DNA of 52,234 bases from Patescibacteria group bacterium (GTDB lineage: Bacteria; Patescibacteriota; Gracilibacteria; UBA1369), in assembly GCA_963169815.1 (NCBI GenBank), contig CAUJDC010000055.1:1-52234 (forward strand), read 5' to 3'. Below the pieces are notes generated by a model. The model was given only the letters and a program-made list of their open reading frames with translations. It did no database searches and was not told the origin of the DNA. The translations under genes and the position numbers were made by a program. Position 1 is the first letter of the stretch, and the number at the start of each line of letters is the position of its first letter. Shown piece after piece: positions 4,989 to 52,234 of this stretch.

Positions 4989-5021
4989 GATGAGAAAAAT
5001 AAAACAAAAAAATTAACATTT

Positions 5022-8000: not shown

Positions 8001-9716
8001 GCTGAAGTCACTCCGGTTATTACTCCTGGAACAGACACTACACCGGATTATACGTTTTCAAGTGATGAAGCAGGTTCCATAACTTATGGTGGTGGCTGTA
8101 CTTCCGCAACTACCAGCGCCAGTATCGGTAGTGTGACAATCACATTCAACGCTTTGCCAACAGGTACATACGCAATGTGTACAATTACAGTTACAGATAT
8201 ACTGGGTAATATCAGTAATTTACTCAACATTACCAGCTTTACTATAGACGCAATTGTCATTCCGCCTGCCCCATCGGGCGGAGGTGGAGGCTCTGCCAGT
8301 TTTGGTCAACCTGCATGTAGTGGCAATGGATGTTCTGCCCCAAGTACACCAGTTACTCCTGTAGTACCTGCTCCGACAGCACCGGTTCAACCAAATACAC
8401 CAGTTACTCCTGTAGCACCTACTCCTGTAGCACCTGCTCCGACAGCACCGGTTCAACCAAATACACCAGTTACTCCTGTAGTACCTACTCCTGTAGCACC
8501 TATTTCACCTACTCCGACAGCACCGGTTCAACCAAATACACCAGCACCTGACAGAACTACAGATGTAACTCAGATAGCCAATGACTCATTGCCACCTATT
8601 CTCCCAACAAGCAACCAAAAATGTAATTATGATGAATTTAACAAAAAATATAATCTAACTGCCGGAACAATTTGGCAGGATAGTGATGGGGATGGACTGT
8701 CTAACAACCTAGAATGTCAGTTTGCAACAGATCCAACCAACATTGATACTGATAATGATGGACAAAGTGATAGTAATGAAGCTTTGAACCTCTTTACAGA
8801 TCCAAATAAACCCGAACAGCTCTCAACATCAAAGAACGATAACTTCGTTGTCTTATCTTTACCTGAAGACAGATTAACCACTGCAGACGAGGCTCCGATC
8901 TTCATGGGCAAAACTCAACCGGAAAATCTGGTCAATATCTTTCTATTCAATTCTGCTGATTTTGATAAATTCCGCGAAGAATTACGCACTTCTGTAAACC
9001 AAATGGAGAAGCTTTCTGAAGCAGAAAAACAGCTTTTGTATAATGAAAAATTCAATAGAATGGTGGAGTTGATTTTACAAAAGCATATCACTCAATCGCT
9101 TGACCCTAAAAAACCTGAAGAAGCAAAGTTTATTGGCAAGATTATTTCTGTTGGCAAGTCAACCGCTGACCAGAATGGAGTCTTTTTACACGATTCCAAC
9201 ATTAACCTGCGAAATAACCGTTATTTGGCTGTTGGTACTGACAATACTGTCTTCTCGAATCCTATAGAATTCACTGTAGATAGTTCACTCGCTTTCATTT
9301 CACCGGAGGCACAGACGCTTAATAATCAGAAAATTACTCCAGAAATACTGTCAGGCCAAGCAGTTTTACACATCTCATCAGATTCCAATAAACCGATCTT
9401 AACTGGTAAAGTTACGGTACCAAGCCGAGTTGTGGCGCTTTGGAAATCTTATGTAACCGGATCCGCTCTAATAGCGGACTCATTTGATCAGGAGTTCCGT
9501 ATGACTCCACCTAAAGCACTGGAACCGGGTGAACATACGGTGTATTTGACTGCTTATCGTAATACCGACAATGCGCAAAGCAAAACACAGAAAATTACTT
9601 TTATTCTGGATCCGGTGTCTGAAACTGCGACATTACCTTGGTGGGCTGTTGCAATCGTTGTCTTTATGGCTTTGCTCGGTACGGGATTCGCGATCAAGTA
9701 CCGAATGAACAAGTAA
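5022..9716 (+). CDS. Giant surface protein with a signal peptide, a CSLREA-type N-terminus, parallel beta-helix / Pmp-like GGAIY repeats, an Ig-like domain, a Pro/Thr linker, thrombospondin-type-3-like Ca-binding repeats and a C-terminal TM anchor
   Basis: Start moved to ATG 5022 (MRKQKKIRYLLTSFLVCLLTFGSALQTFA signal peptide). It has the GDCELREAV motif (5160-5177) and dozens of GGA(I/V)Y / NGGAxY repeats. The DQRGVARPQG...DIGSHEYE motif is typical of choice-of-anchor-Q type beta-helix proteins. It also has DSDGDGLSN...DTDNDGQSDSNE and ends in the hydrophobic tail WWAVAIVVFMALLGTGFAIKYRMNK. Confidence 0.85.
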   Translation: MRKQKKIRYLLTSFLVCLLTFGSALQTFAATIVVDTNDDDNTITGDCELREAVTSANSNTATDGCIAGEVSPTIDSVQFDPGMVGQTVTLTGGQLPTLTETVEVDGDITNDGVPDITIDAGGVSRVFDVNAPDVTVRGFNFLNGAQAGENGGTIRVRSAADLSLIDSTVNESPAIGTANAVNGGAISVETGADDVTLFNVDIANTSASDAGGAVYIGSDADTVLMHDVTINDTTATNGGAIFVDTENTQADPEDLELQLEYSSIQNTTATNAVVPAHGGAISLNNNVEANLDNVTIDNSQADNHGGAIYTSNETIPPTVDTDNLVMTDTSISNSTANIDNGTFNGGCIYVGDNVEALSNNNLNLNTCEGFWGGGVYVGAFAKMIINGVASLLNNSAQNGGGIYISSGANFTNDGVGALIFNSNSAALNGGAVYIQPSAASDVNINNAEFHQNQSSVGGGAIFVDADNTLNITDSEFFENNSVKGGGINAQGGAINPVNVNISNSNFEGNVASGGFDGYGGAIYAGVRTMMTLDTITTDVPDFISTGNSAGVGGGFLWMNNPGDDSTLTINNSGIHDSTAQICGALRVDSAYTPLSPPIQLHNVQFSGNTATAPGGFGGALCSQRGSILMDSVTLSNNTAVLAGGGLDLEAASGNLSTVISGTSSFIDNFSDSGGGIFVGGYGFTSELSIIGATFLSFFTGPSSSGGVIYILESDVNIDGSVFTSNDTAWVNDGGAIYNDIGNLSINNTTISHFIVNGNGGALYNRGGTNTITNSTISNNAANTSGGAVYSARSGANVTVNQSYIGENSAINGGAFYIDKGGLEVVNSTINNNQANGGNGGGFFLGTLATGINIFSTTIAHNNAFNQGGGLLISAGILVDLANTIIADNTSGVTGSNCENNGSFSASGHNLISETTDGCGTVFQPTDIINIPAHLGALDYHGGTTLNYTLLPNSPAINNGGVGQIVDQRGVARPQGVTPDIGSHEYEDNVPPTIAEVTPVITPGTDTTPDYTFSSDEAGSITYGGGCTSATTSASIGSVTITFNALPTGTYAMCTITVTDILGNISNLLNITSFTIDAIVIPPAPSGGGGGSASFGQPACSGNGCSAPSTPVTPVVPAPTAPVQPNTPVTPVAPTPVAPAPTAPVQPNTPVTPVVPTPVAPISPTPTAPVQPNTPAPDRTTDVTQIANDSLPPILPTSNQKCNYDEFNKKYNLTAGTIWQDSDGDGLSNNLECQFATDPTNIDTDNDGQSDSNEALNLFTDPNKPEQLSTSKNDNFVVLSLPEDRLTTADEAPIFMGKTQPENLVNIFLFNSADFDKFREELRTSVNQMEKLSEAEKQLLYNEKFNRMVELILQKHITQSLDPKKPEEAKFIGKIISVGKSTADQNGVFLHDSNINLRNNRYLAVGTDNTVFSNPIEFTVDSSLAFISPEAQTLNNQKITPEILSGQAVLHISSDSNKPILTGKVTVPSRVVALWKSYVTGSALIADSFDQEFRMTPPKALEPGEHTVYLTAYRNTDNAQSKTQKITFILDPVSETATLPWWAVAIVVFMALLGTGFAIKYRMNK
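8346..8549 (+). repeat. Imperfect in-frame tandem repeats (units of 51, 66 and 75 nt) encoding the Pro/Thr-rich linker of the adhesin
   Basis: The unit acaccagttactcctgtag(t/c)acct[actcctgtagcacct]gctccgacagcaccggttcaaccaaat is repeated three times and translates to TPVTPVxP(TPVAP)APTAPVQPN. It explains the repetitive spurious ORFs 8220..8456(-) and 8330..8551(+). Confidence 0.9.
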
Positions 9717-9792
9717 TGGTGCAGCCAAGAGGATTCGAACCTCTGACCTCCTCGACGTCAACGAGGCGCTCTACCAACTGAGCTATGGCTGC
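9717..9792 (-). tRNA. tRNA-Val (anticodon GAC)
   Basis: 76-nt cloverleaf on the minus strand: acceptor GCAGCCA/TGGCTGC, anticodon stem CCTCG/CGAGG with loop TTGACGT, T-arm AGAGG-TTCGAAT-CCTCT. CCA is encoded. The 3-prime end abuts the adhesin stop codon (9714-9716). Confidence 0.9.
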
Positions 9793-9885
9793 AGAGGATG
9801 CACAAATGCAAAAGGAATTTAGCTGATGAGACGGTTTTTATCAAGAATATTTAAGTTTTTCGTTGGCCTCTGTCTAGGTATTCAG

Positions 9886-9916
9886 AAAATCTGCACAGAA
9901 TTGTGTACAGATTTTT
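9886..9916. repeat. Copy 1 of a 31-nt palindromic element (AAAATCTGCACAGAATTGTGTACAGATTTTT). It could be an operator or a bidirectional terminator-like hairpin.
   Basis: 29/31 identical to the perfect palindrome at 43221-43251. The two substitutions break the hairpin symmetry. It lies between tRNA-Val(-) and the dnaJ-like gene(+), 73 nt before ATG 9989. Confidence 0.7.
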
Positions 9917-10924: not shown

Positions 10925-11187
10925 TTTTTTGTAATACTTTTTGTTTTTAGCCAGTTTAATTTGATGTGTGCTGGTGAGGGTACTTGTCACACTACGCCGA
11001 ATAACCTATAAATGGAGAGAATTTGATCCTCAATTAGTCGAATTGGTTAAAACCGACACTGATACTTTTGCTCAATTGTATGATTATTTCTTTCCGAAAG
11101 AAGGAAATTGAAAATGATTCACCTGAATGTGCTAGTTCAGTGTTCCAAACCAAATTTAAAAAAATATTATTATCTCAACATAAGACC

Positions 11188-14100
11188 ATGGTTAAATCAA
11201 AGACTCCGGAAGAAAAGAAATCTCGTTTATGGTCAGACTTCCGCAGGCGCGGCTGGGTAATGGTTTTAGGCGCCCTGGTATTGGTGGTACTCGCGGGCGT
11301 GGCTTCCTATCCATTTATACCTGCTCCAACAGTGATGGGTTATGAAATGAAAAATAATTTGAGAGAAATTTCTTATAATGCCCCAATTCAAATTACTTTC
11401 AATCAATGGATGAACAATTCATCTGTTGAACAGAATTTGAAGTTTGATCCAGCTCTGCCAGGTAAAGTTTCCTGGAAAGGAAATACGATGATTTACACGC
11501 CTGATGAGCCATGGAAGATTGGTGATGTTTATCAGGTGAGCATTGGTAAAGGAGCTGTGAGCTTACTGCAAAAACCATTATCTTCAGATTATAGTGAACA
11601 GATTAAAATAATTGACGCGCCAAAAGTAATTTTAATTACTCCAAATCAACCTGAAACTCCAGTAGATAGCGAAATTAATATTATGTTTGATCATCCAGTT
11701 TCTGGACTGACTACACTAGAAGAAGGTGAAAAGAATATTCCGAATATCAAAATTGATCCTCCAGTAAGTGGCCGTTGGAGATGGATTGGGACAAGCGCGA
11801 TTCAATTTATTCCAGATAAACTGAAATTGGCGACTACTTATACGGTGACTGTGCCAAAAGATTTGAAATTGCTGGATGGTGGCTCTACTACTGAAGAAAC
11901 AGTCAGTAGATTTGATACTGTAAGACCGTCAGTAGAAATGATGACAAGTGATGATGCTGCGGCTGAGACAATCGCTTCAACTAATAGTCATTTCAAACTG
12001 GTTTTTAATCAGAAAATGAATTTGGGCAGTGCTAAGAGTTTGATCAAATTGCAATTGGTGGATGGAGATAAATTTGTTGATGTAGCTTTCGACGCTCATT
12101 ATTATAATTCAGTAGATTGGAAAAATGACCTGAAATTCGACAGCAATAGAGTAGATATGAGTTCTTTCGAAGAAGTTGCTGAAGCTCCAGCAGACGACAA
12201 GACTGTGATGATTTCGCCAATCAAACAGCCAAAGCCAGAAGAGTTGGAAAAAACTTTGGTGATTGTTCCAGGAAGTAAATTAGTTGAAGGCAAGAGTTAT
12301 AGAATATTGGTACCAGAAGGAGTTCAGGGTGCTGATGGCCCACTTGGTACTACTAGTGAAAGAACTTTCACAACGAACGTTGCTGGGCCACTAGAAATGA
12401 CTGGAATGGAACAGAACTTTGATATGGATGAACTTGGTGTGCCAGTATTCTCATTCAACAATCAACTGGATCTAAGAAGTTTGCGTGGAAAAGTAAAGAT
12501 TTCTCCAGAAAATTATGATGAAGATAAGAAACCAGTTGCTCCAGTGATTTGGGGTGATTCAAGTATTACTGTAAGCTATAAATTGAAGCCTGCCAAGGAA
12601 TATAAAGTGGAAGTTGCCGCTGGTGTAAAGGATATCTTTGGCCACAGCTATGACAAACCGATTGAATTTAAATTTATTACTCCAGACTATAAACCAGCCA
12701 TGAACCTGGAATCTGGAAGTGATATCAATATTTTGGATGGTTATAAGCCTTCAGTTTTCTATGTAAAGACTACTAATGTTAATGATGTAAAAGTACAATT
12801 GAAGAAGCTTTCACTAGACCAATTTGTGAAATTTTACGGTAATGGCTGGGTTGACTATCAGTCAATAAATATGAGTGATGATGAATTTGATAAAACAGAA
12901 AATCTGCCAATTAAATTGGCAAAAAATCTGCGGGGTCATACTGAATTAAACTTGGATAAATGGAATGGTGACAAATTGGAAAGTGGCTTCTATTTCATGC
13001 AAGTTTCCAGTCCACAGGTATTGCTGGAAAAATGTAATTATGAAGGTTTTGAAACTAAATGTAAACAAGGTCCTAAACTAGAAAAAAGTCTGTTTGTAGT
13101 CAGTAAATCTGCCGTGGTCGCTAAACAGAGTGAACAGGCTGAAATGGTTTGGGTTACTGATCTTTCTTCTGGCAAGCCAGTAGAAGGGGCGAAAGTTAGA
13201 ATTATCAATAACAGCCTAACTAAAGCTGAAGGGACTACGGATTTGGATGGTATTGCCAAAATGTCAGGAGCTGATTTAAGTGGACTGGTGATTGCGGAAA
13301 GAGATGGCGACATCAGCATTTTGCATGATACTTGGAGTGAAGGAGTGGCCCCTTGGAATTTCAACATTGATGCTACTTCTAGTCTACAGCAGTATTATAT
13401 GTATCTTTACACTGAAAGACCTATTTATAGACCTGGTCAGGACGTAGAATTTAAGGGCATTTTGAGACAAGAAAGAGAATATAAATTCCATTTGCCTGAA
13501 GTTAAATCAGTTAAAGTTACTGCGACTGATTCAATTGGCAATCAGGTTTATGAAAAAGAAATACCATTAAGTAAAAACGGCACATTCTCAGGCAAATTGA
13601 GCCTTGGTGAAGCGGTTGCAACTGGTGACTATAGCTTGCAGGCAGAATTGGTATATGGAGACAAGAAGATTGCGTCTTATCCAAGTACTTTCTGGGCAGA
13701 CTTCAAAGTTTATGAATATAAGAAGCCTGAATATAAATTAGACATTACTCCAGAGCAAAAAGAATATGTGAATGGCCAAACTGCCAAGGTAAAAGTAGAA
13801 GCAGGATATTTCTTTGGCGCTCCTCTTAAGGATGCTCAGATTACTTGGACAGTGAAATCAGAAGATTACTACTTCATTATTCCAGAAGAATTAGCAGCCA
13901 AATTTACTGGTTGGTTCAGTTTTGCTGAAGAAGGATTCTTCTGTTATTGGACTTGCCGTGGGGAATCGGCCGTAGTTGCACAGGGTACTGCTAAAACAGA
14001 TGCTGAAGGCATCGCTGAGGTTACACTCCCACTGAGCCTGGGCAACAAGAAAATGAGCCAAATTTACACTTTGGAAGCGACTGTCAGTGATGCCAATAAT

Positions 14101-17100
14101 CAGAGCGTGGCAAATCGTGTGAGCTTCCCTGTCCATCAAGGTGACTTTTACATGGGGATAAGAAGTCAGGATTATGTCTTGGAAGAAAATAAACCAGCTA
14201 AATTTGAAGTGGTGACTTTGACCAATGATGGAAAAATTCTGGCTAATAAAACTTTCGATGCAACTATTTATGAAAGAAGCTGGAACACTGTAAAACGCAA
14301 GAACGTGGATGGAGGTTTCTATTATGAAAACAGCTATGAAGATAAACAGATAGAAAAGAAATCTGTAACTAGCGACGGCGAAGGCAAGGCTAACTTTGAA
14401 TTCACCATCAAGAAAGGTGGCGAATATAAAGTTGAAACTTCAGCAAAAGATGCACGTGGAAATCTAGTGAAGAGTTCTACTTCTGTCTATGTTGGTGGTG
14501 GCGACTTTATCAACTGGGGAAACGCAAATAATGATAGAATCGAATTGGTAAATGATAAGATGGAATATCAGGTTGGTGATACGGCCAAGATTTTGATTAA
14601 GTCTCCTTATAAAGGTGTGTACGCACTAGTGACTTATGAAAAAGATAAAGTCTTGGAACAAAAAGTGATTAAACTAGAAAGTAATTCTCAAACTATTGAA
14701 GTACCGATTACTGAGAAATTCTTACCAAATGCTTTTGTCTCAGTGATAGTTATGAAGGGCAACTCTTATGACGCTGGACTGAAAGAACCGATCGCTGGGG
14801 CTATTGATGAAAGACAAGTGGCTTCATTCAAAGTAGGTTACACTACTTTGCAGGTAAATACTGAAGGCAAACGTTTGAATGTGAAAATTCAGGCTAATAA
14901 AGCCAAGTATGCGCCTGGCGAAGAAGTTACATTGAGTGTGAAGACAACTGACTATTCTGGACGCCCAGTTCCTGCTGAACTTTCTTTGGGAGTTGTTGAT
15001 GAAAGCGTTTTGAGTCTGACTGAAAGCGTGACTGCGGATTTGATTAACGTTTTCTATCGCAAGAGAATGCTTGGTGTTTACTCGGCTTACTCACTGACTA
15101 AAGCTTTATCCAGAATCAATGTAGTTGTGGAAGCTGGTGAAAAAGGTGGCGGCGGTGGTGGAGTTGCTAAACGAGGACTCTTTAAGGATACTGCTTATTT
15201 TGAAAGCAGTTTGATGACTGGAAGTAATGGTGAAGGAACAGTGACTTTCAGATTGCCAGATAACCTCACTACATGGCAAGTAATGGCCATTGGTATTACT
15301 GATGATAGTACAACAGAAAAGACTTTGGTGGGCAGCAATAAGATGAGTTTCTTGGTGACTAAAGATATTTTGGTCAGACCAGTTCTACCAAGATTTATGA
15401 CTAGTGGAGATGAAATGGAAATTTCGGCAATTGTCCATAACTATACTGATAAAGATCAACCTATTAAAGTTAGCCTGGAAGCGCCAGGACTGGAACTCAA
15501 AGATGGTGCGGAAAAGTCAGTGAATGTAGCCAAAAATAGTTCGGAAAAAGTAAATTGGAAAATTAAAGTAGGTAATGCTGGAAATGTGAAACTCAGTTTC
15601 AGCGCCATCGCTAATGGTGGAGAAAAGGGCGACAGTATTGAACAAGTACTTCCTGTAAAACAACCAAGCTTCCCTACAAATGTCGCAACCAGTAGAGTTG
15701 TTGATAGCGACACTGTTAGCGCTGATAAAGTCTGGTTACCTGCCAATTTGGATTTGAGTAGAGGTAAATTAACAATCAAAGCCAGCGCGACTTTGGCCGG
15801 TTCAATCAATGATGGTTTACTATATCTGTTGAGCTACCCCTATGGCTGCACTGAGCAATTAGCGAGCGCGATTCTGCCAAACGTAACTCTGGAAAAATTG
15901 ATTAAGATTGGCAAATTCAAGACTGAAAATATTTCTGAAGAAGAATTGAAGAAAAATGTTAGCACTGGTTTACAGCAATTATATTTGAATCAAAAAGCTA
16001 ATGGTGGTTTCGGTTTATGGATGGATTCAGACGATAACGCTTATTTGACTGCCTACGTTCTTTACACTCTCAGCCAAGCCAAATCTGCTGGCTTCACAGT
16101 TGATGAAAAAGTAATTAATAATTCTATTTCTTACTTGGATAATTACATCAAGAATACTTCTCTTGATGCCAAGGGAAACTTGGTGAACAAGGCTGCTGAA
16201 GAAAGATATATAGCCAATACCAGAGCTTATGTACTCTTTGTTATGAGTGAAATTGGTAAGGGAGATTTGGGTCTAACTAAGAATCTATATAAGGTTAAAG
16301 ATAGACTTTCTCTGGCTTCAACTGCTTATTTGATGATGACATTACAAACTCTGAAAGAACCTGCTCAGGACCTCAAAGAATACTTGCAAAGCAATGCTAA
16401 ACAAACTACTCGTGGTGTAGCATTTGAAGAACAGAACTTGGATTATAGAATTTTTGACACGAATACCAGAACGACTGCCATCGTGATGTTGGCTTTATTC
16501 AGAGAAAATCAAAAGAGTCCATTGGTGCCAAAGATTTTGCAGGCTCTACTTCAGGAAAGACAGGCTGGTCACTTCCTAACTACTCAGGACACGGCTGTCA
16601 GTATGCTTGCACTGATTGAATACTTTGAAAAATCAGATGAACTTGATGCGAATTATCAGGGTCTGGTTTTGATCAATGGTGAATCAGTTTTGGATGAACC
16701 ATTCAAGTCAGATAATTTATTTGAAAGTATGGTGAAGGAAGTTCCTGTGGATAAACTCTTAAACAATAATCTCGACAATGAAATTGCCAGCAAGCGCAAT
16801 GGTAAAGGCAAAATGTATCTTGATTTGAATCTGGAATACTTCCTGCCACTTGAAGCTTTGAAGGCTAAAGACCAAGGTATTGGCGTAATTCAGGAATACT
16901 TTGCCCAAAATGATGAGAAAATGGAAAGCCCACTAAATACAGTAAAAGTTGGTGAAAATCTGCATGGAAGAATCACAGTAGTAGTGCCGAAAGATAGCTA
17001 CTATGTGATGATTGAAGATTTCTTGCCAGCAGGGCTTGAAGGTATTGATTTCAATCTGAAAACTTCTGAACAAAACTTACAGAAAGGAAAAGATGATGAT

Positions 17101-17331
17101 TGTAACTACGATGAATGTGACAACAACTGGTATTTCAATCATGAAGAAGTTCGTGATGATCGTATGATGTACTTCGCTGATTATTTACCAAAAGGAGTTT
17201 ATGAAATTGACTATTATGTCAGAGCGACTTCAGTTGGCAACTTTGCCGATTTACCAACTTTGGCCCAAGAAACATATTTCCCTGAAGTATTTGGTAGAAG
17301 TGAAGGCAAGAAGTTTAATGTAACTGAATGA
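11188..17331 (+). CDS. Bacterial alpha-2-macroglobulin family protein (thioester-containing), N-terminally membrane anchored
   Basis: 2047 aa from ATG 11188 (MVKSK...), followed by a TM helix (GWVMVLGALVLVVLAGVASYPF). It contains repeated MG/Ig-like domains, the thioester motif YPYGCTEQLAS (CTEQ at 15847-15858) and an alpha-helical TED-like region after it. The TTG start in the ORF track adds 40 implausible residues. Confidence 0.88.
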   Translation: MVKSKTPEEKKSRLWSDFRRRGWVMVLGALVLVVLAGVASYPFIPAPTVMGYEMKNNLREISYNAPIQITFNQWMNNSSVEQNLKFDPALPGKVSWKGNTMIYTPDEPWKIGDVYQVSIGKGAVSLLQKPLSSDYSEQIKIIDAPKVILITPNQPETPVDSEINIMFDHPVSGLTTLEEGEKNIPNIKIDPPVSGRWRWIGTSAIQFIPDKLKLATTYTVTVPKDLKLLDGGSTTEETVSRFDTVRPSVEMMTSDDAAAETIASTNSHFKLVFNQKMNLGSAKSLIKLQLVDGDKFVDVAFDAHYYNSVDWKNDLKFDSNRVDMSSFEEVAEAPADDKTVMISPIKQPKPEELEKTLVIVPGSKLVEGKSYRILVPEGVQGADGPLGTTSERTFTTNVAGPLEMTGMEQNFDMDELGVPVFSFNNQLDLRSLRGKVKISPENYDEDKKPVAPVIWGDSSITVSYKLKPAKEYKVEVAAGVKDIFGHSYDKPIEFKFITPDYKPAMNLESGSDINILDGYKPSVFYVKTTNVNDVKVQLKKLSLDQFVKFYGNGWVDYQSINMSDDEFDKTENLPIKLAKNLRGHTELNLDKWNGDKLESGFYFMQVSSPQVLLEKCNYEGFETKCKQGPKLEKSLFVVSKSAVVAKQSEQAEMVWVTDLSSGKPVEGAKVRIINNSLTKAEGTTDLDGIAKMSGADLSGLVIAERDGDISILHDTWSEGVAPWNFNIDATSSLQQYYMYLYTERPIYRPGQDVEFKGILRQEREYKFHLPEVKSVKVTATDSIGNQVYEKEIPLSKNGTFSGKLSLGEAVATGDYSLQAELVYGDKKIASYPSTFWADFKVYEYKKPEYKLDITPEQKEYVNGQTAKVKVEAGYFFGAPLKDAQITWTVKSEDYYFIIPEELAAKFTGWFSFAEEGFFCYWTCRGESAVVAQGTAKTDAEGIAEVTLPLSLGNKKMSQIYTLEATVSDANNQSVANRVSFPVHQGDFYMGIRSQDYVLEENKPAKFEVVTLTNDGKILANKTFDATIYERSWNTVKRKNVDGGFYYENSYEDKQIEKKSVTSDGEGKANFEFTIKKGGEYKVETSAKDARGNLVKSSTSVYVGGGDFINWGNANNDRIELVNDKMEYQVGDTAKILIKSPYKGVYALVTYEKDKVLEQKVIKLESNSQTIEVPITEKFLPNAFVSVIVMKGNSYDAGLKEPIAGAIDERQVASFKVGYTTLQVNTEGKRLNVKIQANKAKYAPGEEVTLSVKTTDYSGRPVPAELSLGVVDESVLSLTESVTADLINVFYRKRMLGVYSAYSLTKALSRINVVVEAGEKGGGGGGVAKRGLFKDTAYFESSLMTGSNGEGTVTFRLPDNLTTWQVMAIGITDDSTTEKTLVGSNKMSFLVTKDILVRPVLPRFMTSGDEMEISAIVHNYTDKDQPIKVSLEAPGLELKDGAEKSVNVAKNSSEKVNWKIKVGNAGNVKLSFSAIANGGEKGDSIEQVLPVKQPSFPTNVATSRVVDSDTVSADKVWLPANLDLSRGKLTIKASATLAGSINDGLLYLLSYPYGCTEQLASAILPNVTLEKLIKIGKFKTENISEEELKKNVSTGLQQLYLNQKANGGFGLWMDSDDNAYLTAYVLYTLSQAKSAGFTVDEKVINNSISYLDNYIKNTSLDAKGNLVNKAAEERYIANTRAYVLFVMSEIGKGDLGLTKNLYKVKDRLSLASTAYLMMTLQTLKEPAQDLKEYLQSNAKQTTRGVAFEEQNLDYRIFDTNTRTTAIVMLALFRENQKSPLVPKILQALLQERQAGHFLTTQDTAVSMLALIEYFEKSDELDANYQGLVLINGESVLDEPFKSDNLFESMVKEVPVDKLLNNNLDNEIASKRNGKGKMYLDLNLEYFLPLEALKAKDQGIGVIQEYFAQNDEKMESPLNTVKVGENLHGRITVVVPKDSYYVMIEDFLPAGLEGIDFNLKTSEQNLQKGKDDDCNYDECDNNWYFNHEEVRDDRMMYFADYLPKGVYEIDYYVRATSVGNFADLPTLAQETYFPEVFGRSEGKKFNVTE

Positions 17332-43332: not shown

Positions 43333-44172
43333 ATGAAAAAATGGATAATGATTATTGGTGCAGTGACTATTTGGCTTTTTGCCTGGGCTATTCTGGGACT
43401 GCCTGATGGGAAGCTCAGAGTGTGGTTTTTGGATATTGGACAAGGGGATGCGATTTTGATGCGGCTGCCTGCTGGAGAATGGGTGATGGTTGATGGCGGG
43501 CCAGATGCCAAAGTTCTGGATTGGATGGGAAGGATTATGCCTTTTTATGAAAGACGATTGGAACTAGTGATCAATAGCCATCCGCATGCGGATCATTTAA
43601 ATGGCTTAGTGGAGGTCTTGGCGCGCTATGACGTGGAGAATTTGTGGATAAGTGGTGTGAAATATAATTATGCTGGTTATCAGAAAATGCTGGAGGAAGC
43701 AGCGGATGCTGGAACGCGGATTGTTTACACTTCTGGGAAAGACGCCCGCATAGGAAAAGTTGGCTTTGATTTGATTTACCCACAGCGCAGCTTGCAGGGA
43801 GAAGGGATGGAAAATGTGAATAATAGTTCAATTGTTTTTCGTTTGATTTATGCCGGGCAGCGGATTTTCTTCAGCGGAGATTTAGAGGAACAGAAAGAAA
43901 CAGAGCTGATGCGTGTGAATGGACTGAATTTAGAATCGGACATTTTAAAAGCTGGACATCATGGCTCGAAAACCAGCAATACTGAAGAATTTGTGCGCAG
44001 AATTGGACCAGAATATGCGGTGATTTCCTGTGGAGTAGACAATAAATTCAAGCATCCATTTCCTGGAACATTAGAGAGATTTGGAAGAATGGGAATGACG
44101 GTTTACCGGACAGACCTGGATGGGACTGTGGAGGTAGAGATTGGCGAAGATTTAAAGATTACTTCTTCATAG
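43333..44172 (+). CDS. ComEC/Rec2-type metallo-beta-lactamase domain protein (stand-alone, single N-terminal TM)
   Basis: 279 aa: a TM helix, then VWFLDIGQGDAILMRLPAGEWVMVDGG, HPHADHLNGL, GDLE and AGHHGSK, as in the C-terminal MBL domain of ComEC. Confidence 0.8.
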   Translation: MKKWIMIIGAVTIWLFAWAILGLPDGKLRVWFLDIGQGDAILMRLPAGEWVMVDGGPDAKVLDWMGRIMPFYERRLELVINSHPHADHLNGLVEVLARYDVENLWISGVKYNYAGYQKMLEEAADAGTRIVYTSGKDARIGKVGFDLIYPQRSLQGEGMENVNNSSIVFRLIYAGQRIFFSGDLEEQKETELMRVNGLNLESDILKAGHHGSKTSNTEEFVRRIGPEYAVISCGVDNKFKHPFPGTLERFGRMGMTVYRTDLDGTVEVEIGEDLKITSS

Positions 44173-45040
44173 CTACTCCGATCTTCCACATCCCCTTTTC
44201 GCGGAAGGCTTCGATGCTTTGGCGTTTGGCGGCGTTGAGGAGGGTCTGTTTGGATTTGCCAATGGTTTCGGAAAGTTGAGTAAGTGGGATGATATTGAGG
44301 GCTTTTAGATAAGCCAGACGTTTATGGAAGGATTCCATTAAGAGCAGCCAGAGAAGATCTTCCAGTCTTTTGGTTTTGCGGCTTTGATCGTATTCTTTGA
44401 GGGCCTGGTAATATTCCTTTTTTTCTTTATCGCGGAAAATGATGGGTGGGAGACCAAGCTCGATTAACTGGATATTGGTGAGGATGCGGCCGATGCGACC
44501 ATTGCCGTCATTGAAGGGGTGAATATGTTCGAATTGGAGATGGAAGCGGGCGATTTTTTCTAAAAAATAACCGTTCAAATCGTCCTGATAGTCACTGATG
44601 TTTTTCTCCAACAATGCATCTACATGTTCAGGAGCAGGAGCGATGTGATTACCAACTTTGACGTATTCATTTTCCTGGCGGAAGCGGCCAGCAATTTCGT
44701 CACTGATACCAGAGATGAGCATGTGATGCAGAAAGAGAATGAAGTCCAAACTAAAGTGTAAATGTCCTTTTTTCTGTCGAATATAATCAGTGACGCGGGC
44801 GAGATTTTTGGCTTCGAAAACTTCGCGCAAACTGACTTTGCGGGAAACTTCCATTTCGAGGAGAATTTGTTCAGTTTCCTGAAGAGAAAGCGTGGAGTTC
44901 TCGATGGCATTGGAATTGTAAACACCTTCAGGAATTTCAGCGTCATCTATCATACGAAGAAGTGCGTCTTTGCCCTTCTTTAATTGGTCGTACTCGGCTT
45001 TCAGATCGGCTATTTGTTTTCTGGCGGCAGGTAATAGCAT
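44159..45040 (-). CDS. Fic-family protein (class II, N-terminal inhibitory motif) with a C-terminal HTH
   Basis: Fic active-site motif HPFNDGNGRIGR (44486-44521). Inhibitory-helix motif SNAIEN = (S/T)xxxE(G/N) at residues 43-48. C-terminal HTH-like LTQLSETIGKSKQTLLNAAKRQ. Confidence 0.88.
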   Translation of the reverse strand: MLLPAARKQIADLKAEYDQLKKGKDALLRMIDDAEIPEGVYNSNAIENSTLSLQETEQILLEMEVSRKVSLREVFEAKNLARVTDYIRQKKGHLHFSLDFILFLHHMLISGISDEIAGRFRQENEYVKVGNHIAPAPEHVDALLEKNISDYQDDLNGYFLEKIARFHLQFEHIHPFNDGNGRIGRILTNIQLIELGLPPIIFRDKEKKEYYQALKEYDQSRKTKRLEDLLWLLLMESFHKRLAYLKALNIIPLTQLSETIGKSKQTLLNAAKRQSIEAFREKGMWKIGVAMKK

Positions 45041-45096: not shown

Positions 45097-45197
45097 TTCG
45101 TGAATTTAAAATGTTTTATATGCACATTCACGATTTTTTGCAGTGTGGTTTATCGTTAATCATGGTTAATTTTGACCAGTATTCACGATTTTTACAG
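45097..45197. repeat. Repeated ATTCACGA boxes in the murA-fic spacer
   Basis: ATTCACGATTTTT occurs at 45126-45138 and again at 45181-45193 (direct, each followed by a CAG 1-2 nt downstream). An inverted copy TTCGTGAAT lies at 45097-45105, next to the -35 element. (C/G)GTTAAT also occurs 4 times (45048, 45075 inverted, 45154, 45164). Confidence 0.6.
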
Positions 45198-46445
45198 GTC
45201 AACACGGCGAATCTTGGCGCCGAGGGCAGTGAGCTTGCCTTCGATATTTTCATAGCCACGATCAACGTATTTGATATTAGAAATTTCAGTGGTTCCTTCA
45301 GCAACCAAACCTGCCAATACCATAGCAGCGCCAGCACGGATGTCGATGGAAGCAATTGGCACACCACGTAGGCGGGCTTTGCCTTTGATGGTTGCTTGAT
45401 GTGGATTTAAGATTTGAATCTTAGCGCCCATTTTCTCCAGTTCAGTGAGGTAGTTGAGGCGCCCTTCGAAAAGAGTTTCGAAAATTTGTGATTCACCTTC
45501 GGCCTGAGTAAGTAGCACTGAGAAAGGCGCCTGGAGATCGGTAGCAAAAGATGGATATACCGCTGTACGAACCGCTGTTGGAGCTTCGAACTTTTCTGTC
45601 GGATGAACTGTTACTGCATTTTCTTCGAGCGTGAATTTGGCGCCCATTTCTTCTAATTTCTGCCAAAAACTTTCTAATTGCCAAGTTGGAATTCCCTCAA
45701 TGCGAACTTCTCCACCAGTGATGAGACCAGCAATAGCGAAAGTACCTGCTTCCAAATAATCTCCTGTTACACTGTACTCTGTACCATGCAGCTCAGTCAC
45801 ACCTTCAATAGTGAGGAAGTGCGTGCCTATACCGCTGATTTTCGCCCCCATTGTATTGAGAAAATTACAGAGATCCTGAACATGTGGTTCAGCAGCAACC
45901 AGTTTCAACTCTGTTTTGCCAGGTGCTACAGCGGCCAGCATGATGGCATTTTCAGTAGCCGTAACAGACATTTCCGTCATCAAAACATTGGCGGCGGCCA
46001 GTTTTGGTAAGCGCATATGAATGCGTTCATCAGAGCGAATTACTTCTGCTCCGAGTTTTTCCAAAGCGTAAGTATGGGCATGTGCAGAACGTTTTCCGAG
46101 TACGCAGCCACCAGGGAAGCTCAAATTGAGTTCGCCGAGACGGGCCAACATTGGACCGAAGAGCAGGATGGAAGCACGCATCTTGTTGATCAGAGAATCG
46201 TCAGCACCTTCATTTTTTAGTTCGGCAGCTTCGATAGTGACAGTGTGATCTACGAAAGAAGTTATGACGCCAAGTGAATTGAGAATTTGCAAAAGTGCAT
46301 TTACATCACTAATTTGCGGGACATTGTGCAGAGTTACTTTTTCTTTGCTGAGCAAAGCCGCACAGATAATAGGAAGAACGGCGTTTTTTGAACCACTAAC
46401 TTTGACAGTACCATTAAGCTTCTGTTTGCCTTCAATTATAAACAT
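45192..46445 (-). CDS. murA: UDP-N-acetylglucosamine 1-carboxyvinyltransferase MurA (resident copy)
   Basis: 417 aa, collinear with MurA: VSGSKNAVLPI, MRASILLFGP, the active-site loop PGGCVLGKRS (Cys retained), FATDLQAPF, IASIDIRAGAAMVLAG and VDRGYENIEGKLTALGAKI. Confidence 0.92.
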   Translation of the reverse strand: MFIIEGKQKLNGTVKVSGSKNAVLPIICAALLSKEKVTLHNVPQISDVNALLQILNSLGVITSFVDHTVTIEAAELKNEGADDSLINKMRASILLFGPMLARLGELNLSFPGGCVLGKRSAHAHTYALEKLGAEVIRSDERIHMRLPKLAAANVLMTEMSVTATENAIMLAAVAPGKTELKLVAAEPHVQDLCNFLNTMGAKISGIGTHFLTIEGVTELHGTEYSVTGDYLEAGTFAIAGLITGGEVRIEGIPTWQLESFWQKLEEMGAKFTLEENAVTVHPTEKFEAPTAVRTAVYPSFATDLQAPFSVLLTQAEGESQIFETLFEGRLNYLTELEKMGAKIQILNPHQATIKGKARLRGVPIASIDIRAGAAMVLAGLVAEGTTEISNIKYVDRGYENIEGKLTALGAKIRRVDL

Positions 46446-48071: not shown

Positions 48072-49070
48072 CTATTTTAATTCTTCAATCATTGAATCGA
48101 AAATGCGACGATGTTCTTTATTTTCTCGACTGAAATAGGTCCTATTACTTAATAACACTCCAGCTTTGCCGTTGCCTCTGTTGATTGCTATAAGACAGCC
48201 AGAAAAACCTGGGTGGCAATAAATACCCTGATCTGAGGTATTCCCTGAATAAGTCCTACCCCACCAGCCAATGGACTGGGAATTAATCCCACCATAGTTT
48301 TTAAATACTTTATCCTGGGTTTCGATAGTCAATATGTTTTGTTTAAGCCACATTTCAGCAAATTTTGCTAAATCATTTGCTGTAGAAAAAATACCTGCAT
48401 TGCCTGCTATCCCACCTAACAGTTCTGCTGATTCATCTTGAGTAATGCCCTTTTTGAGTCTGCCCAAATAATTCTCGCTGGCAACTAAACTGAAGCTAGC
48501 TGTCTGTGCCCCTGTAGTCGTTTTATTTAAACCAAACTCTCTGAAGAAATTTTGAAAAACCTGATCAAGTGATTGGCCAGTTACACGCTCAATAATAAAC
48601 CCTAGATAAACATACCCCAAGTTATGATAATCAATGTTATTTATACGCTCAGCAGGGGCTGTTATATCAATTAATTTTCCTTTGAAGTCATTAGGAAATT
48701 TTGCTCTGTACTCTGAAAGCATTAAATCAAATTTGACTCTATGTGTCAGCAAATCAATTATCTCAACTTTTGAATCTTTAAAGTTACCTAGAAATTCGCC
48801 GACCCTTTGAAATATATCGATTTTTCCTTCTTCCATCAGCCTAAGAATTACAGTGGCAGTGAATAGCTTGGTTACTGAAGCTATGTCAAAAAGGGTATTT
48901 TCATCGATAGGGTTTTGAGAGATGGCGTCTTCAGTACCCAAGATAAATGTCTGTCTGTTCCCTGAACTGTCTATGATTAAAGAAGAAACGGCGGTTACAC
49001 CAGAATTTAGATAATCTCTTAATTCTTCATGGTAGTTAATTGATGTTTTGTCTATTGATCTATTTTTCAT
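48072..49070 (-). CDS. Beta-lactamase-fold serine hydrolase (class C / PBP4*-like / esterase family)
   Basis: 332 aa with SxxK (FDIASVTKLF), a YxN-like YHN (DYHNLGYVYLG) and HxG in place of KTG (CHPGFSG). There is no signal peptide. Its ATG overlaps the upstream stop (ATGA at 49067-49070). Confidence 0.75.
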   Translation of the reverse strand: MKNRSIDKTSINYHEELRDYLNSGVTAVSSLIIDSSGNRQTFILGTEDAISQNPIDENTLFDIASVTKLFTATVILRLMEEGKIDIFQRVGEFLGNFKDSKVEIIDLLTHRVKFDLMLSEYRAKFPNDFKGKLIDITAPAERINNIDYHNLGYVYLGFIIERVTGQSLDQVFQNFFREFGLNKTTTGAQTASFSLVASENYLGRLKKGITQDESAELLGGIAGNAGIFSTANDLAKFAEMWLKQNILTIETQDKVFKNYGGINSQSIGWWGRTYSGNTSDQGIYCHPGFSGCLIAINRGNGKAGVLLSNRTYFSRENKEHRRIFDSMIEELK

Positions 49071-49978
49071 AAACTTTTGAGATAAAGTCTCCCTTTTATA
49101 ATTCCATATTTATTAACTTTGGGCACGTAGAATTTTTTCCCAAGTAAATCCTCAAATACAGATTTTCCAATAAGTAGCGAAAGCAAATAGGCGATAGCTT
49201 CTGGAGTTAGATGTCTTCCATCTTCTTGAAAGTAAGAGTGATGGGATAGCAGCTCGTATTCAGGAAAATAACTAACTTTTGTACAAACTACACTTTTACA
49301 TGCATTTACTAAGTTTGATTTTGATTTATTACTTGCAGATACAATGTCTTTGTTTAAGCTTGAATACTTTAATGGGACAGGTGAAACAGTAAATGTAACA
49401 TTTATATCAAGCTTTTCATTACAGATTTTCATAGTTTTGGATAAGCAACGTGATAAGGAAGCTAAACCGGCCAGTCTAACACCATATTCTTTATTTATTT
49501 GATTTAAGGGTAGTTCAATTGGAACTCGATTCATTATTGTATTTGTTTCTTTATGAAACCACACTTCTGCTAAACCAAAAACCAATACTAAGTTTTTTAG
49601 TTTTAAAAGTGTTTTAAGTGCTTTTCTATCAAATAGCTTGTTTTTATGCCTCAATTCTTCAAGACTTTCGCCCCTTATCCAGCTTCGCCATGGGTCGCAA
49701 AAGATAGTTATTCCATTCTTTTTGAATTTATAGACTCCAAACTCCCACTTATTTGATTTATCTATTAGTCTTTCAAGTTCTGAATAAATAGAAAAAGGAT
49801 TATAAAATATTCCCCAAATATTTTTAACTTCACCTCCGTATACACGTTTTATAAGACGACTCAAATTTCTTGCATCACAGCTACCAAGTACTAATGTTGT
49901 AGATATGTCTTCTATGCTGAATCTATTAAGCATATTACTACTCCATTCAGATTTAAAAATTGAATTAGTTTTATACAT
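49067..49978 (-). CDS. GSCFA-family-like protein (SGNH-hydrolase-like fold, function unknown)
   Basis: 303 aa with an N-terminal LVLGSCDARNL (GSCFA signature variant), GIFYNPFSI and a C-terminal D-x-x-H (QEDGRHLT). It is very AT-rich and starts immediately after the stop of the upstream gene (49979-49981). Confidence 0.6.
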   Translation of the reverse strand: MYKTNSIFKSEWSSNMLNRFSIEDISTTLVLGSCDARNLSRLIKRVYGGEVKNIWGIFYNPFSIYSELERLIDKSNKWEFGVYKFKKNGITIFCDPWRSWIRGESLEELRHKNKLFDRKALKTLLKLKNLVLVFGLAEVWFHKETNTIMNRVPIELPLNQINKEYGVRLAGLASLSRCLSKTMKICNEKLDINVTFTVSPVPLKYSSLNKDIVSASNKSKSNLVNACKSVVCTKVSYFPEYELLSHHSYFQEDGRHLTPEAIAYLLSLLIGKSVFEDLLGKKFYVPKVNKYGIIKGRLYLKSL

Positions 49979-51250
49979 TTAAGATAAGATTATATTGGCT
50001 CCGATAGATTTAAGTTTTAAAAAGAGATTTTCGTAACCTCGTTCAATCTGCTCATAGTTGTGCACGAAAATTCTCTTTTTCAGACCAAGTGAGGCAACAA
50101 CTAGTGAAGCACCTGCACGTATATCACTTGCATGAACAACCAACTCTTTAATATTAACTTTATCCATGATCATGTAAGCTGAATCATTGTTTTTGAAAAG
50201 AAAACCTAATTTTGCCAGCTCTTTTAGATGAGACTCTCTTTTGTCGTAAATTTTATCTATGATTTCGTTACCCCCACCTAAGCATCCTAATGCACTGCAA
50301 ATAATGGGGCCTATATCTGAAGGTAACGCTGGCCAGACGTCCAGAACATAAGTTTTCCTTGGATTGACAGTATTCTGACAATCAAACCTAGAAACCTTGA
50401 ACCCAATGTTTTGAATTTTTACATGTAGGTCATTTAAAAAAGCTTTTACAGATTTTGTTAGCTTATAATTTGATAACTCTATAGTAGATCTTGTAGATAT
50501 TGCAGCGCATATGAAAGTAATTGTTTCAGTTAAATCTGGTTCAATGGTTGCTACTATTAGCTTATTTATTGGTATTTGTTTTTTAACTTTTATAATAGTT
50601 ACTTTTCTTCTTTTTTTGTCTAGAATTACCTCACTGCCTAGTTTCTTGAGAATTTTGCAGACAGTTAAAATAACTGGCTCGATAGCAATATCAGTTAGAA
50701 TTACTTTTTTACTTATTTGGAGGGAACTAAAAAGTGCACTACAGGTAACTCCTACACTTGGTCCAAACTTAGATTTACAGGAGAACCGCAGAGTTCTTTT
50801 TTTTGATTTTAATTTGGACTTTATTGAGTTATTGGTTTGTTTTACAGTTATTCCTAAACTTTTAGCTAATTTAAGATGTAAATCTATCGGTCTAAATGTA
50901 AAATTACACCCTCTAGGCTTATAGAAAGTAGCAAATTTATTTTTAAGCACTGCTCCTGGCAACAAACATATACTTGCTCTGGACTTTGATAACTTTTGAA
51001 AGTTTACTTTGGCGTTTTGTAGGTGAATAACTCTTAAGTTGTTCTTATCTATGAATATTTTTTTAATACCTTCTTCTTCTAACCATTCGATTATGAAAAT
51101 AGCATCTCCACACAAGCTAGCATTTTTTATTAACAAATCAGACTCAATGAAAAACGACATTAAGAGTACATGTACTGTACTAATCTTATCTCCTGATATG
51201 TGTACACGGCCTAAAAGTTTATGTCCTCCCTGTATCCTTAAGCTAGGCAT
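49979..51250 (-). CDS. Highly divergent MurA-like enolpyruvyl transferase paralog
   Basis: 423 aa, collinear with MurA. It retains equivalents of K22 (ISGDK), R91 (KSRAS), C115/R120 (PRGCNFTFRPIDLH), D305 (PALPSD), D369/R371 (ASDIRAGASLV) and the C-terminal IERGYENLFLKLKSIGANI. N23 is replaced. Composition is extremely K/I/N/S-rich. Confidence 0.75.
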   Translation of the reverse strand: MPSLRIQGGHKLLGRVHISGDKISTVHVLLMSFFIESDLLIKNASLCGDAIFIIEWLEEEGIKKIFIDKNNLRVIHLQNAKVNFQKLSKSRASICLLPGAVLKNKFATFYKPRGCNFTFRPIDLHLKLAKSLGITVKQTNNSIKSKLKSKKRTLRFSCKSKFGPSVGVTCSALFSSLQISKKVILTDIAIEPVILTVCKILKKLGSEVILDKKRRKVTIIKVKKQIPINKLIVATIEPDLTETITFICAAISTRSTIELSNYKLTKSVKAFLNDLHVKIQNIGFKVSRFDCQNTVNPRKTYVLDVWPALPSDIGPIICSALGCLGGGNEIIDKIYDKRESHLKELAKLGFLFKNNDSAYMIMDKVNIKELVVHASDIRAGASLVVASLGLKKRIFVHNYEQIERGYENLFLKLKSIGANIILS

Positions 51251-51430
51251 AGTATTTAATTAACGATTCACTTATTTAGAGCTCATTAACAACTAATTGT
51301 AGTTAATATTAAATCATTTTTATATTAAAATGTATTAGAAAATTGTTACTTTTGAATGAAATTGAATTGGAAAGAGTAATTGCCCTTTAAGTTTAGGGCT
51401 GCTAAAATACTTTTGCACAAAAACAAAAAA

Positions 51431-52234
51431 GTGAAAAATCCAAAAAACTTTCTACAAAAAACTTCGCCCGCTTTATCGATAATGTTGTCGGTGGTTTTGA
51501 TTTCAGTAATCGTACTTTTTTCAATTGGCGTTACCACAATTGTGGTTGATTCTGCCAGGCAGGGAGCCAATGTCAGACAGGGAACTACTGCTTATTATGC
51601 GGCGGAAGCTGGTATTGAGCAGGCACTTTGGGTGAATAAAAAACTGACTGACACAGGGTCCTCGATTGGCGCCAATACCAATGGCAATTTTGATTCAGCA
51701 ACTACTTTCAAAATTCAGGGAACACCGAAAAATTTCACCGAACAAACAGTTAATGGCAAATACATTGTTCCTTTTCCCTGGACTGGAAATGCTCCCTGGC
51801 ATGGAGAAGCTTCCGTTCCTCAAGGTGGTTGCAATCCAGAAAAACCGCCGACCCGCATTGGAACTGGTAGTTCTAAAACTTTTAAAGGCATAGGAATTGC
51901 CGGAGCAGAAGTGACACTTTATGAAATAGACCATCCCTGCAATTGGAATAGATTAAAAGTTGGAGAAAAAGCCACTATTCCGCTTTATAGTATAAACACC
52001 GCAACTTCACCGGCAACAATAACCAATTACGATGACTTCCGTTTGCGCATACGGCTGCCCTGCAAAGAAGGTGCTGAAATTTGTGCCCCGCAAGACAGAC
52101 TGGAGCTAAATTGTTTTGACAAAGGCGACGATGAGAAGAAGTGTGTGGGGGGTGGATTTTATGCTGGCAGTGATAAATATCGTGGAGAAATTGTGATGCT
52201 TTGGGAAATCAATGCTGAAGGAGCGACGCCTGGA
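51431..52234 (+). CDS. PilX-like pilus-associated protein. The C-terminus runs off the right window edge.
   Basis: Not in the supplied ORF track. The frame is open from 51380 to the window end. Candidate starts are GTG 51431 and ATG 51482 (TTG 51380 and 51413 are also possible). It has an N-terminal hydrophobic helix followed by QGTTAYYAAEAGIEQAL (a PilX_N-like motif), then a Cys-rich extracellular region. Confidence 0.6.
   Translation, partial: MKNPKNFLQKTSPALSIMLSVVLISVIVLFSIGVTTIVVDSARQGANVRQGTTAYYAAEAGIEQALWVNKKLTDTGSSIGANTNGNFDSATTFKIQGTPKNFTEQTVNGKYIVPFPWTGNAPWHGEASVPQGGCNPEKPPTRIGTGSSKTFKGIGIAGAEVTLYEIDHPCNWNRLKVGEKATIPLYSINTATSPATITNYDDFRLRIRLPCKEGAEICAPQDRLELNCFDKGDDEKKCVGGGFYAGSDKYRGEIVMLWEINAEGATPG

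Follow-up and report, generated by a model that had tools for sequence, protein, structure and literature searches.

A rare gene cassette that pairs a MurA-like protein with a GSCFA-family protein in Patescibacteria and other bacteria

The subject of this analysis is a three-gene cassette in a stretch of DNA of 52,234 nucleotides (nt), here called the window, which is contig CAUJDC010000055.1 (positions 1 to 52,234) of the assembly GCA_963169815.1 from a Patescibacteria group bacterium. The cassette lies on the minus strand and encodes, in this order, a putative MurA-like enolpyruvyl (carboxyvinyl) transferase (49979..51250, 423 amino acids (aa)), a cassette-type GSCFA protein that is a candidate serine hydrolase or acyltransferase of the SGNH superfamily (49067..49978, 303 aa), and a predicted cytoplasmic serine hydrolase or transferase of the S12 family with a beta-lactamase fold (48072..49070, 332 aa). 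When the minus strand is read base by base, the stop codon TAA of the MurA-like gene (49981-49979) directly abuts the ATG of the GSCFA gene (49978-49976), and an ATGA at 49070-49067 constitutes a 4-nt overlap of the GSCFA and S12 genes. Judged from these abutting and overlapping codons, the trio appears to be a same-strand operon with coupled translation, and its order is kept at other loci. All three proteins score above the gathering scores of their Pfam families: the MurA-like protein matches PF00275 with 1.1e-37 over residues 7-413 of 423, i.e. over a full-length EPSP-synthase fold, and also the profile of its own clade described below, the GSCFA protein matches PF08885 with 1.3e-30 (107.4 bits at a threshold of 25), and the S12 protein matches PF00144 with 5.3e-40 (138 bits at a threshold of 27). 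An earlier reading of the same DNA, made without database searches (the sequence-only reading), had placed the three open reading frames (ORFs), their strands and both junctions exactly, and its assignments to the GSCFA and beta-lactamase families were borne out by these profile matches.

The gene contexts of members of the MurA-like clade and of cassette-type GSCFA proteins were gathered and checked with tblastn, and they define what is conserved. At all 13 independent loci without a fusion, the MurA-like gene is directly followed by a cassette-type GSCFA gene, and two natural fusions, P0267 (752 aa) and P0268 (740 aa), join the two proteins in the same order, with the MurA-like part at the N-terminus. 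Ordinary murA loci served as negative control; of 79, none had either a GSCFA gene or an S12 gene at a distance of up to about 6 kb. An S12 gene, on either strand, is present in 10 of the 12 loci with enough flank to judge. The conserved core of the cassette is the MurA-like/GSCFA pair, to which the S12 gene is a frequent but replaceable addition. Of the three-gene cassette described in the sequence-only reading, the pair is thus strictly conserved and the S12 gene in part.

The complete trio is present in the window genome, in a relative of it (L007), in Parcubacteria, in unassigned metagenome contigs including the soil-derived L001, and in a metagenome-assembled genome (MAG) of Maribacter (Bacteroidota; L105), where it is flanked by a phage-type integrase and a TrwC relaxase. 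The pair without an S12 gene occurs in Deinococcus and in a Saccharimonadales MAG, where the place of the S12 protein is taken by a GDSL lipase and a MacB-type ABC transporter. In case of Deinococcus multiflagellatus, the one named species outside the MAGs among the loci of this analysis, the pair is followed by a protein that passes the MurB cutoff (287 > 259 bits) and then by a nonribosomal peptide synthetase (NRPS) of the arrangement A-T-C-A-T..., with a phosphopantetheinyl transferase and a TetR protein encoded upstream. The MurA-like and MurB genes of this species are intact in one of two assemblies and fragmented in the other (L014 7000-9923 versus L015 99-3332), and the split genes could be assembly indels or reflect pseudogenisation within the NRPS cluster. 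One fusion gene (L106) lies behind genes for a GlmU-like nucleotidyltransferase and a 249-aa unknown protein, and beside a GT4 glycosyltransferase gene; a partial ORF at the end of that locus was considered as a possible S12 C-terminus and rejected. Other loci carry further additions, namely a NUDIX protein and a ligase that passes the MurD cutoff in L001, a PaaK-like AMP ligase and a glycosyltransferase in L010, and a radical SAM enzyme, a DegT aminotransferase, a NUDIX protein and an AAA_28 protein downstream of the cassette in L004. The proteins encoded upstream in L010 (452 aa) and L007 (468 aa) were considered as Mur ligases and rejected, as the former is the PaaK-like AMP ligase and the latter a PilX-like protein. 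With this distribution, the cassette is rare and spreads horizontally across Patescibacteria, Bacteroidota and Deinococcota.

By its profile scores, the MurA-like protein appears to belong to a rare clade that is distinct from housekeeping MurA. It stays below both NCBIfam murA cutoffs, with 198.4 bits for TIGR01072 (cutoff 392.7) and 206.8 bits for NF006873 (cutoff 297), whereas the resident MurA of the window exceeds them with 498 and 503 bits. A word-indexed search of 5.8 billion proteins recovered 13 clusters at E <= 1e-50 with 30-78% identity, followed by ordinary MurAs at ~1e-36, and a HMMER search with the clade profile among 1.84 billion representatives at 50% identity gave about two dozen clusters with at least 311 bits, followed by ordinary MurAs with at most ~254 bits. 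In a scan of 185,579 species-representative genomes, one of the best 80 matches is a clade member, and a metagenome scan added seven loci that encode a relative of the MurA-like protein. Compared with solved structures, the clade profile scores 214 bits against MurA, 95.4 bits against NikO and 56 bits against AroA. It was a possibility that the protein falls within ordinary MurA2/MurZ clades and that its neighbours are not conserved with it, but the gap in the profile scores, the failed cutoffs, the residue signature described in the following and the cross-phylum neighbours all show the opposite.

For the residue comparison, 33 clade sequences, one of them N-terminally truncated and lacking positions 22-23, were aligned with 59 ordinary MurAs and the E. 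coli and resident enzymes. K22, R91, C115, R120, H125, S162, D305, R331, D369, R371 and R397 (E. coli numbering) are kept without exception wherever a clade sequence extends over the position, and at V163 there is Val in 31 and Ile in 2 of them. Asn23, which is present in 98% of the 59 ordinary MurAs, is replaced by Ile, Val or Thr in all 32 clade members that cover it, and by Ile in the window protein. Other changes in the clade are G118 to Thr, Ser or Ala, T304 mostly to Ser, and Q307 to Gly or Ala, and E190 and R232 are changed as well. This pattern suggests that the clade has kept its machinery for phosphoenolpyruvate (PEP) and uridine diphosphate (UDP) intact but has been remodelled around the acceptor hydroxyl. 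The sequence-only reading had already listed the equivalents of K22, R91, C115, R120, D305, D369/R371 and R397 and the loss of N23, and was right in both respects; its comparison of the active-site loops, according to which RGCNFTFRPIDLH of the MurA-like protein is closer to the canonical motif than GGCVLGKRSAHAH of the resident MurA, is also correct. The resident MurA (45192-46445, minus strand) deserves a remark in its own right, as its uridine-binding loop is atypical (GGCVLGKRSAHAH versus GGCTIGARPVDLH in E. coli), and as it has His at D123, a position that is 86% conserved in the 59 ordinary MurAs. Among the fetched sequences it is most similar to MurAs of Saccharibacteria and other Patescibacteria (42-46% identity), which by itself places the host, approximately and with some probability, in the Patescibacteria (CPR).

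The obligatory partner belongs to the family GSCFA (PF08885), which has more than a thousand members and was listed in a 2022 review as an SGNH family without known activity or solved structure (PMC9487903). The candidate SGNH residues S33 (in GSC), G135 and H256 (in DxxH) are invariant in the alignment of 10 cassette copies and in that of 30 family members, and N150 and D253 are invariant in the cassette copies and at least 90% conserved among the 30 family members. In the fusion P0267, the nucleophile Ser of the GSC motif is replaced by Thr (GTC). An AlphaFold2 (AF2) model with a pLDDT of 92 has the flavodoxin-like SGNH fold. Foldseek searches with this model gave GDSL/SGNH esterases as top matches, and as these are remote only (best E 2.6e-3, TM <= 0.46), no function can be transferred to the GSCFA protein; a sequence search of the PDB gave no match. 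The cassette-type proteins form a subfamily of their own, with 19 clusters at 277 bits or more and the next group at 194 bits or less. They have in common a C-terminal tail of the pattern F[WY]VPxVxxxGxxxG[KR]LY outside the Pfam domain (window 49067-49150), which is a beta-hairpin in the predicted model. Other GSCFA genes are conserved in detoxin/rimosamide (depsipeptide) clusters (PMC9503745, PMC12828459), and in Tannerella and Porphyromonas a GSCFA gene is located directly upstream of the alanine racemase gene alr (bioRxiv 10.64898/2026.02.09.704811). By analogy, these contexts would point to a setting of UDP-sugar and Mur-type chemistry. A second-tier GSCFA locus (L107), which represents another GSCFA subfamily, has no MurA-like neighbour; its cluster encodes an acyl-CoA dehydrogenase, an ORF of acyl carrier protein (ACP) size, an FMN-dependent dehydrogenase, an isonitrile-synthase-like DIT1_PvcA protein and an acetyltransferase, and is another uncharacterised biosynthetic context for GSCFA.

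In case of the S12 protein, 10 cassette copies all have the motifs SxxK (S65/K68), YxN (Y148/N150) and HxG (H286/G288) without variation, and two further motifs, THDESAxLLGGxAGNAG and CNRTYYGR, are conserved. On inspection, the N-termini of the 10 copies are hydrophilic and not signal-like. As there is neither a signal peptide nor a membrane anchor, the protein is most likely cytoplasmic, in agreement with the sequence-only reading, which had described a cytoplasmic-looking SxxK/YxN hydrolase. The best solved relatives of the S12 profile are Flp/FmtA of S. aureus, alkaline D-peptidase, Pab87 and the R61 DD-peptidase, which with 69.6-94.5 bits rank ahead of class C beta-lactamases. Flp/FmtA, alkaline D-peptidase and the R61 DD-peptidase are enzymes of D-amino-acyl esters or amides, which for the S12 partner is a resemblance only. 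The protein remains far under the curated cutoffs for class C beta-lactamase (44.5 versus 415 bits), AmpH (46.4 versus 266) and PBP4B (64.4 versus 385).

The cassette deviates from its surroundings in composition. Its G+C content (GC) is 0.334, compared to 0.408 +/- 0.017 in the other 3.2 kb segments of the window (z = -4.2), and it is lower than in each of them. The individual genes have a GC of 0.327 (MurA-like), 0.310 (GSCFA) and 0.365 (S12), and at first codon positions (GC1) they have the lowest values among the 33 genes of the window. The tetranucleotide distance of the cassette (z = 3.5) is equalled by one other segment. The composition is thus indeed anomalous in the direction given in the sequence-only reading, the hand counts of which were too low for the first two genes and too high for the third. 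The GC of the cassette is also well under that of the flanks in L007 (0.357 versus 0.484) and L100 (0.413 versus 0.663), while it matches the flanks at the remaining loci. Between the window and L007, the cassette proteins are 66-74% identical, in comparison to 90-95% for ComM and MurA. The synonymous substitution rate (dS) between the two is saturated and equal for the cassette and the flanks (1.4-2.0), and the cassette must therefore already have been present in the common ancestor of the window genome and L007. This rules out a recent acquisition in the window lineage. A foreign origin, as the sequence-only reading had proposed, agrees with the composition and with the patchy spread across phyla, which includes an integrative element, but not in the sense of a recent event. 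The ratio of non-synonymous to synonymous substitution rates (dN/dS) in comparison to L007 is 0.147 for the MurA-like gene, 0.114 for the GSCFA gene and 0.085 for the S12 gene, with 0.02-0.04 for the flanks, i.e. the cassette is kept by purifying selection, under a constraint that is weaker than for housekeeping genes.

The other genes of the window are those of an ordinary chromosome, such as genes for ArgRS, NusA, a PilB-type ATPase, an alpha-2-macroglobulin, ComM and the canonical MurA. Upstream of the cassette, an AT-rich intergenic region (51251..51429) presumably contains the promoter; a scan of this region for consensus promoters and terminators gave a signal no higher than in shuffled sequence. 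The region is shared with a divergent ORF for a PilX-like (type IV pilin-like) protein (~51430-52234, plus strand), which runs off the end of the window. The homologue in L007 has 468 aa and contains a stretch that is identical to the window ORF, and the cassette is therefore a diverged island amid conserved flanks. L007 has an extra gene for a 310-aa GCS2-like protein (8974-9906, minus strand) between comM and murA, which is not found in the window, and the region is thus structurally variable. A Fic-domain protein is encoded 3 kb from the cassette (44159-45040, minus strand) and matches PDC-S04, a candidate defence family of PADLOC (8.8e-38), and SoFic (2.9e-29); the 3' end of its gene overlaps by 14 nt that of a convergent gene for a protein with metallo-beta-lactamase fold (43333-44172, plus strand). 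Two giant ORFs stand out elsewhere in the window, of which the one at 11068-17331 (plus strand, 2087 aa) encodes the bacterial alpha-2-macroglobulin with MG, bait-region and TED domains, and the one at 4950-9716 (plus strand, 1588 aa) has no Pfam match.

No description of the pairing was found in the literature, which was searched for the trio, for MurA-like gene clusters, for lactyl-ether sugars and for defence associations, nor in PADLOC, PHROGs or NCBIfam. A scan of the three cassette proteins against PADLOC-DB 2.0 at E <= 0.01 returned zero families, and the matches in PHROGs were limited to a generic MurA-like phrog without known function and to tail-lysin-type matches of the S12 protein. 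In 50,697 phage records, tblastn detected only ordinary MurAs with up to 28% identity, the matches in a plasmid collection were limited to distant GSCFA sequences of rhizobial and Novosphingobium replicons, and IMG/VR contained five distant GSCFA loci (22-26% identity) of which none has a MurA-like neighbour. The MurA-like/GSCFA core is previously undescribed, with components from known superfamilies.

What could be the function of such a cassette? We tentatively favour, with a confidence that stays a little short of even, that it is a mobile pathway for a carboxyvinyl or lactyl-ether derivative of a UDP-sugar. It would be a cytoplasmic tailoring pathway of three enzymes, built around an obligatory core of two. 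In a first step, for which the conserved residues argue, the MurA-like protein would take the enolpyruvyl (1-carboxyvinyl) group of PEP and attach it to a hydroxyl of a sugar that is linked to UDP, and the acceptor would be other than N-acetylglucosamine (GlcNAc) or would be bound differently than in MurA. The strict co-occurrence and the fusions suggest that the GSCFA protein may act on the same intermediate, just before or after this transfer, by Ser-His ester or acyl chemistry. Based on its family resemblance, the S12 protein may then carry out hydrolysis or transfer of a D-aminoacyl or peptidyl ester or amide on the product. The product itself would resemble muramic acid, as a carboxyvinyl or lactyl-ether derivative of a sugar, and would serve either as a specialised building block of the envelope or as a small secondary metabolite. 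At other loci the core would be extended, by MurB and an NRPS, by MurD-type or PaaK-type ligases, by a GlmU-like uridylyltransferase together with a glycosyltransferase, or by NUDIX proteins, and the whole could be seen as a small parallel Mur-like pathway that moves horizontally. The UDP-sugar pathway is preferred because the recurrent partners are almost all nucleotide-sugar or Mur-type enzymes.

Several points weigh against this interpretation. The acceptor of the first step is proposed only from residue conservation. The second step is the weakest link, since it is not obvious how an SGNH serine would react with a free enolpyruvyl carboxylate. The core trio does not include a glycosyltransferase, a flippase, an exporter or a regulator. 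The accessory genes vary by locus, and murD in L001 as well as murA in the window may be mere housekeeping neighbours. Several loci are situated in defence or mobile islands, which would fit a role in conflict equally well. In a neighbour-joining tree, the clade forms one bipartition, but with a bootstrap of 37-64% only, and the case for a distinct clade is therefore based on profile scores, signature residues and gene context.

The alternative that survives best, although it is rather unlikely, is exactly such a conflict or anti-phage chemical system. The trio would make a toxic enolpyruvyl nucleotide-sugar or nucleotide analogue, or divert UDP-GlcNAc and PEP upon infection, the target would be phage replication or the cell-wall synthesis of competitors, and the hydrolases would activate or detoxify the compound. 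The rarity of the cassette, its patchy distribution across phyla and its low GC would agree with this, and some loci are suggestive: a complete AbiEi/AbiEii pair lies directly upstream of the cassette in L004 (5746-7684), a TIR protein (PDC-S66/ThsB-like), a bacterial gasdermin and a caspase-like protease are encoded 2-4 kb from the cassette in L001 (13273-16419), with an rve integrase nearby, the integrase/TrwC element that has the cassette as cargo in Maribacter also contains a PLD (DrmC-like) gene, an ArdC-like gene is present in L099, and the window has its Fic protein (PDC-S04/SoFic). Moreover, NikO sets a precedent in that a fold of this type can modify the 3'-OH of a nucleotide (PMC6801904). 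However, PADLOC has no match for any of the three proteins, recognised defence genes occur within 8 kb in no more than about 4 of 13 lineages, no cassette-type copy was found in the phage, plasmid and IMG/VR collections, and the cassette has no sensor or regulatory component. The Deinococcus pair is inside an NRPS cluster and L106 in a sugar-nucleotide operon, and the clade is much nearer to MurA than to NikO. We regard it as improbable that the MurA-like/GSCFA pair, together with the S12 protein, is a new mobile chemical-conflict module that converts a uridine nucleotide or UDP-sugar to an enolpyruvyl antimetabolite and thereby protects its carrier from phages or competitors, with the serine hydrolases maturing the compound or providing self-immunity; the antimetabolite may in that case be a nucleotide with a blocked hydroxyl or a false peptidoglycan precursor.

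Also unlikely is that the cassette edits or salvages the peptidoglycan precursors of its own cell, which would alter the wall chemistry and could e.g. confer resistance to lysins or antibiotics. The S12 protein would trim or exchange the D-Ala-D-Ala end of cytoplasmic UDP-N-acetylmuramic acid (MurNAc)-peptides, the GSCFA protein would remove or add O-acyl or aminoacyl groups, and the MurA-like protein would install or reinstall the ether on a modified UDP-sugar. Such a function would be in line with the absence of signal peptides from all three proteins, with Flp/FmtA and DD-peptidases as nearest relatives of the S12 protein, and with the GSCFA-alr pairing in Bacteroidota (bioRxiv 10.64898/2026.02.09.704811), and the cassette is indeed 3.5 kb from the resident murA in the window and in L007, beside murD in L001, and followed by the MurB-type gene in Deinococcus. 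However, no more than 3 lineages have the cassette near mur genes while the others do not, and the cassette is much too rare for a general function in the wall. The loss of N23 and the changes in the D305 region argue against a use of UDP-GlcNAc in the manner of MurA, and the contexts with NRPS, PaaK-type ligase and glycosyltransferase suggest a separate product.

A redundant, back-up or inhibitor-insensitive MurA (MurA2/MurZ-like) with two unrelated neighbours, which the sequence-only reading had listed as a possible role, is very improbable: the full-length MurA fold and the complete catalytic residues would permit it, and the genome has a canonical murA besides, but the protein fails the equivalog and subfamily cutoffs, Asn23 is absent from every member that covers the position, the GSCFA partner is obligatory and even naturally fused, and none of the 79 ordinary murA loci has such neighbours. 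As C115, the target of fosfomycin, is retained, there would also be no obvious resistance. A chance adjacency of decaying, non-functional foreign genes, to which the low GC and the faster protein divergence in comparison to the flanks could point (66-74% versus 90-95% identity to L007), is effectively refuted by dN/dS values of 0.085-0.147 at saturated dS, which show purifying selection, by intact and translationally coupled ORFs, by invariant active-site motifs, and by a gene order that is conserved across phyla and includes fusions.

If the cassette is a UDP-sugar pathway as favoured above, it would be of interest in more than one respect. Enolpyruvyl transferases for sugar or nucleotide acceptors have been described as MurA and NikO (2019 review, PMC6801904), and the clade would add a further functional type, with an obligatory partner that has not been recognised. 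For GSCFA proteins, the strict pairing and fusion with an enzyme of defined chemistry is the first concrete and testable functional link. Bacteria with reduced genomes, probably Patescibacteria, would have acquired a specialised nucleotide-sugar pathway by horizontal transfer and kept it by purifying selection, which points to an unrecognised envelope modification or metabolite, and the cassette may reveal a new carboxyvinyl or lactyl-ether metabolite. Should the product be a false cell-wall precursor or a nucleotide analogue, it could possibly be of antibiotic or antiviral interest.

How does the cassette compare to known systems? With MurA (TIGR01072, including MurA2/MurZ), the clade has in common the two-domain EPSP-synthase fold and the catalytic, PEP and UDP residues, and MurA is its best match of solved structure (214 bits). 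The differences are that the clade remains below the cutoffs, that N23 is never Asn and G118, T304, Q307, E190 and R232 are changed, that MurA is universal whereas the clade is rare and horizontally distributed, and that ordinary murA loci have no GSCFA gene, whereas the clade is always paired or fused with one. NikO, the enolpyruvyl-uridine monophosphate (UMP) synthase of nikkomycin formation (PDB 4fqd), is likewise a non-housekeeping transferase of the MurA fold that belongs to a specialised metabolite pathway, but it is farther from the clade than MurA (95 versus 214 bits), and partners of the nikkomycin/polyoxin type are not conserved with the cassette. No pairing of NikO with GSCFA or S12 enzymes is known, and none was found in the literature searched. 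With NikO there is a precedent for a transferase that accepts a uridine nucleotide and not UDP-GlcNAc (PMC6801904). The S12 protein has the SxxK, YxN and HxG motifs in common with Flp/FmtA, alkaline D-peptidase (4y7p), the Streptomyces R61 DD-peptidase and Pab87, from which it differs by its predicted cytoplasmic location, its extra motifs and its genetic tie to an enolpyruvyl transferase. The GSCFA relatives PipG, RmoJ and DetH of the detoxin/rimosamide clusters, as well as those of the GSCFA-alr pair in Tannerella and Porphyromonas, belong to the same Pfam family, have the same SGNH set and are found in a small-molecule or cell-wall-related context. In contrast to these relatives, the cassette GSCFA proteins form a separate subfamily with a C-terminal beta-hairpin tail, and among the GSCFA subfamilies of this analysis only theirs is tied to a MurA-like enzyme, by linkage or by fusion.

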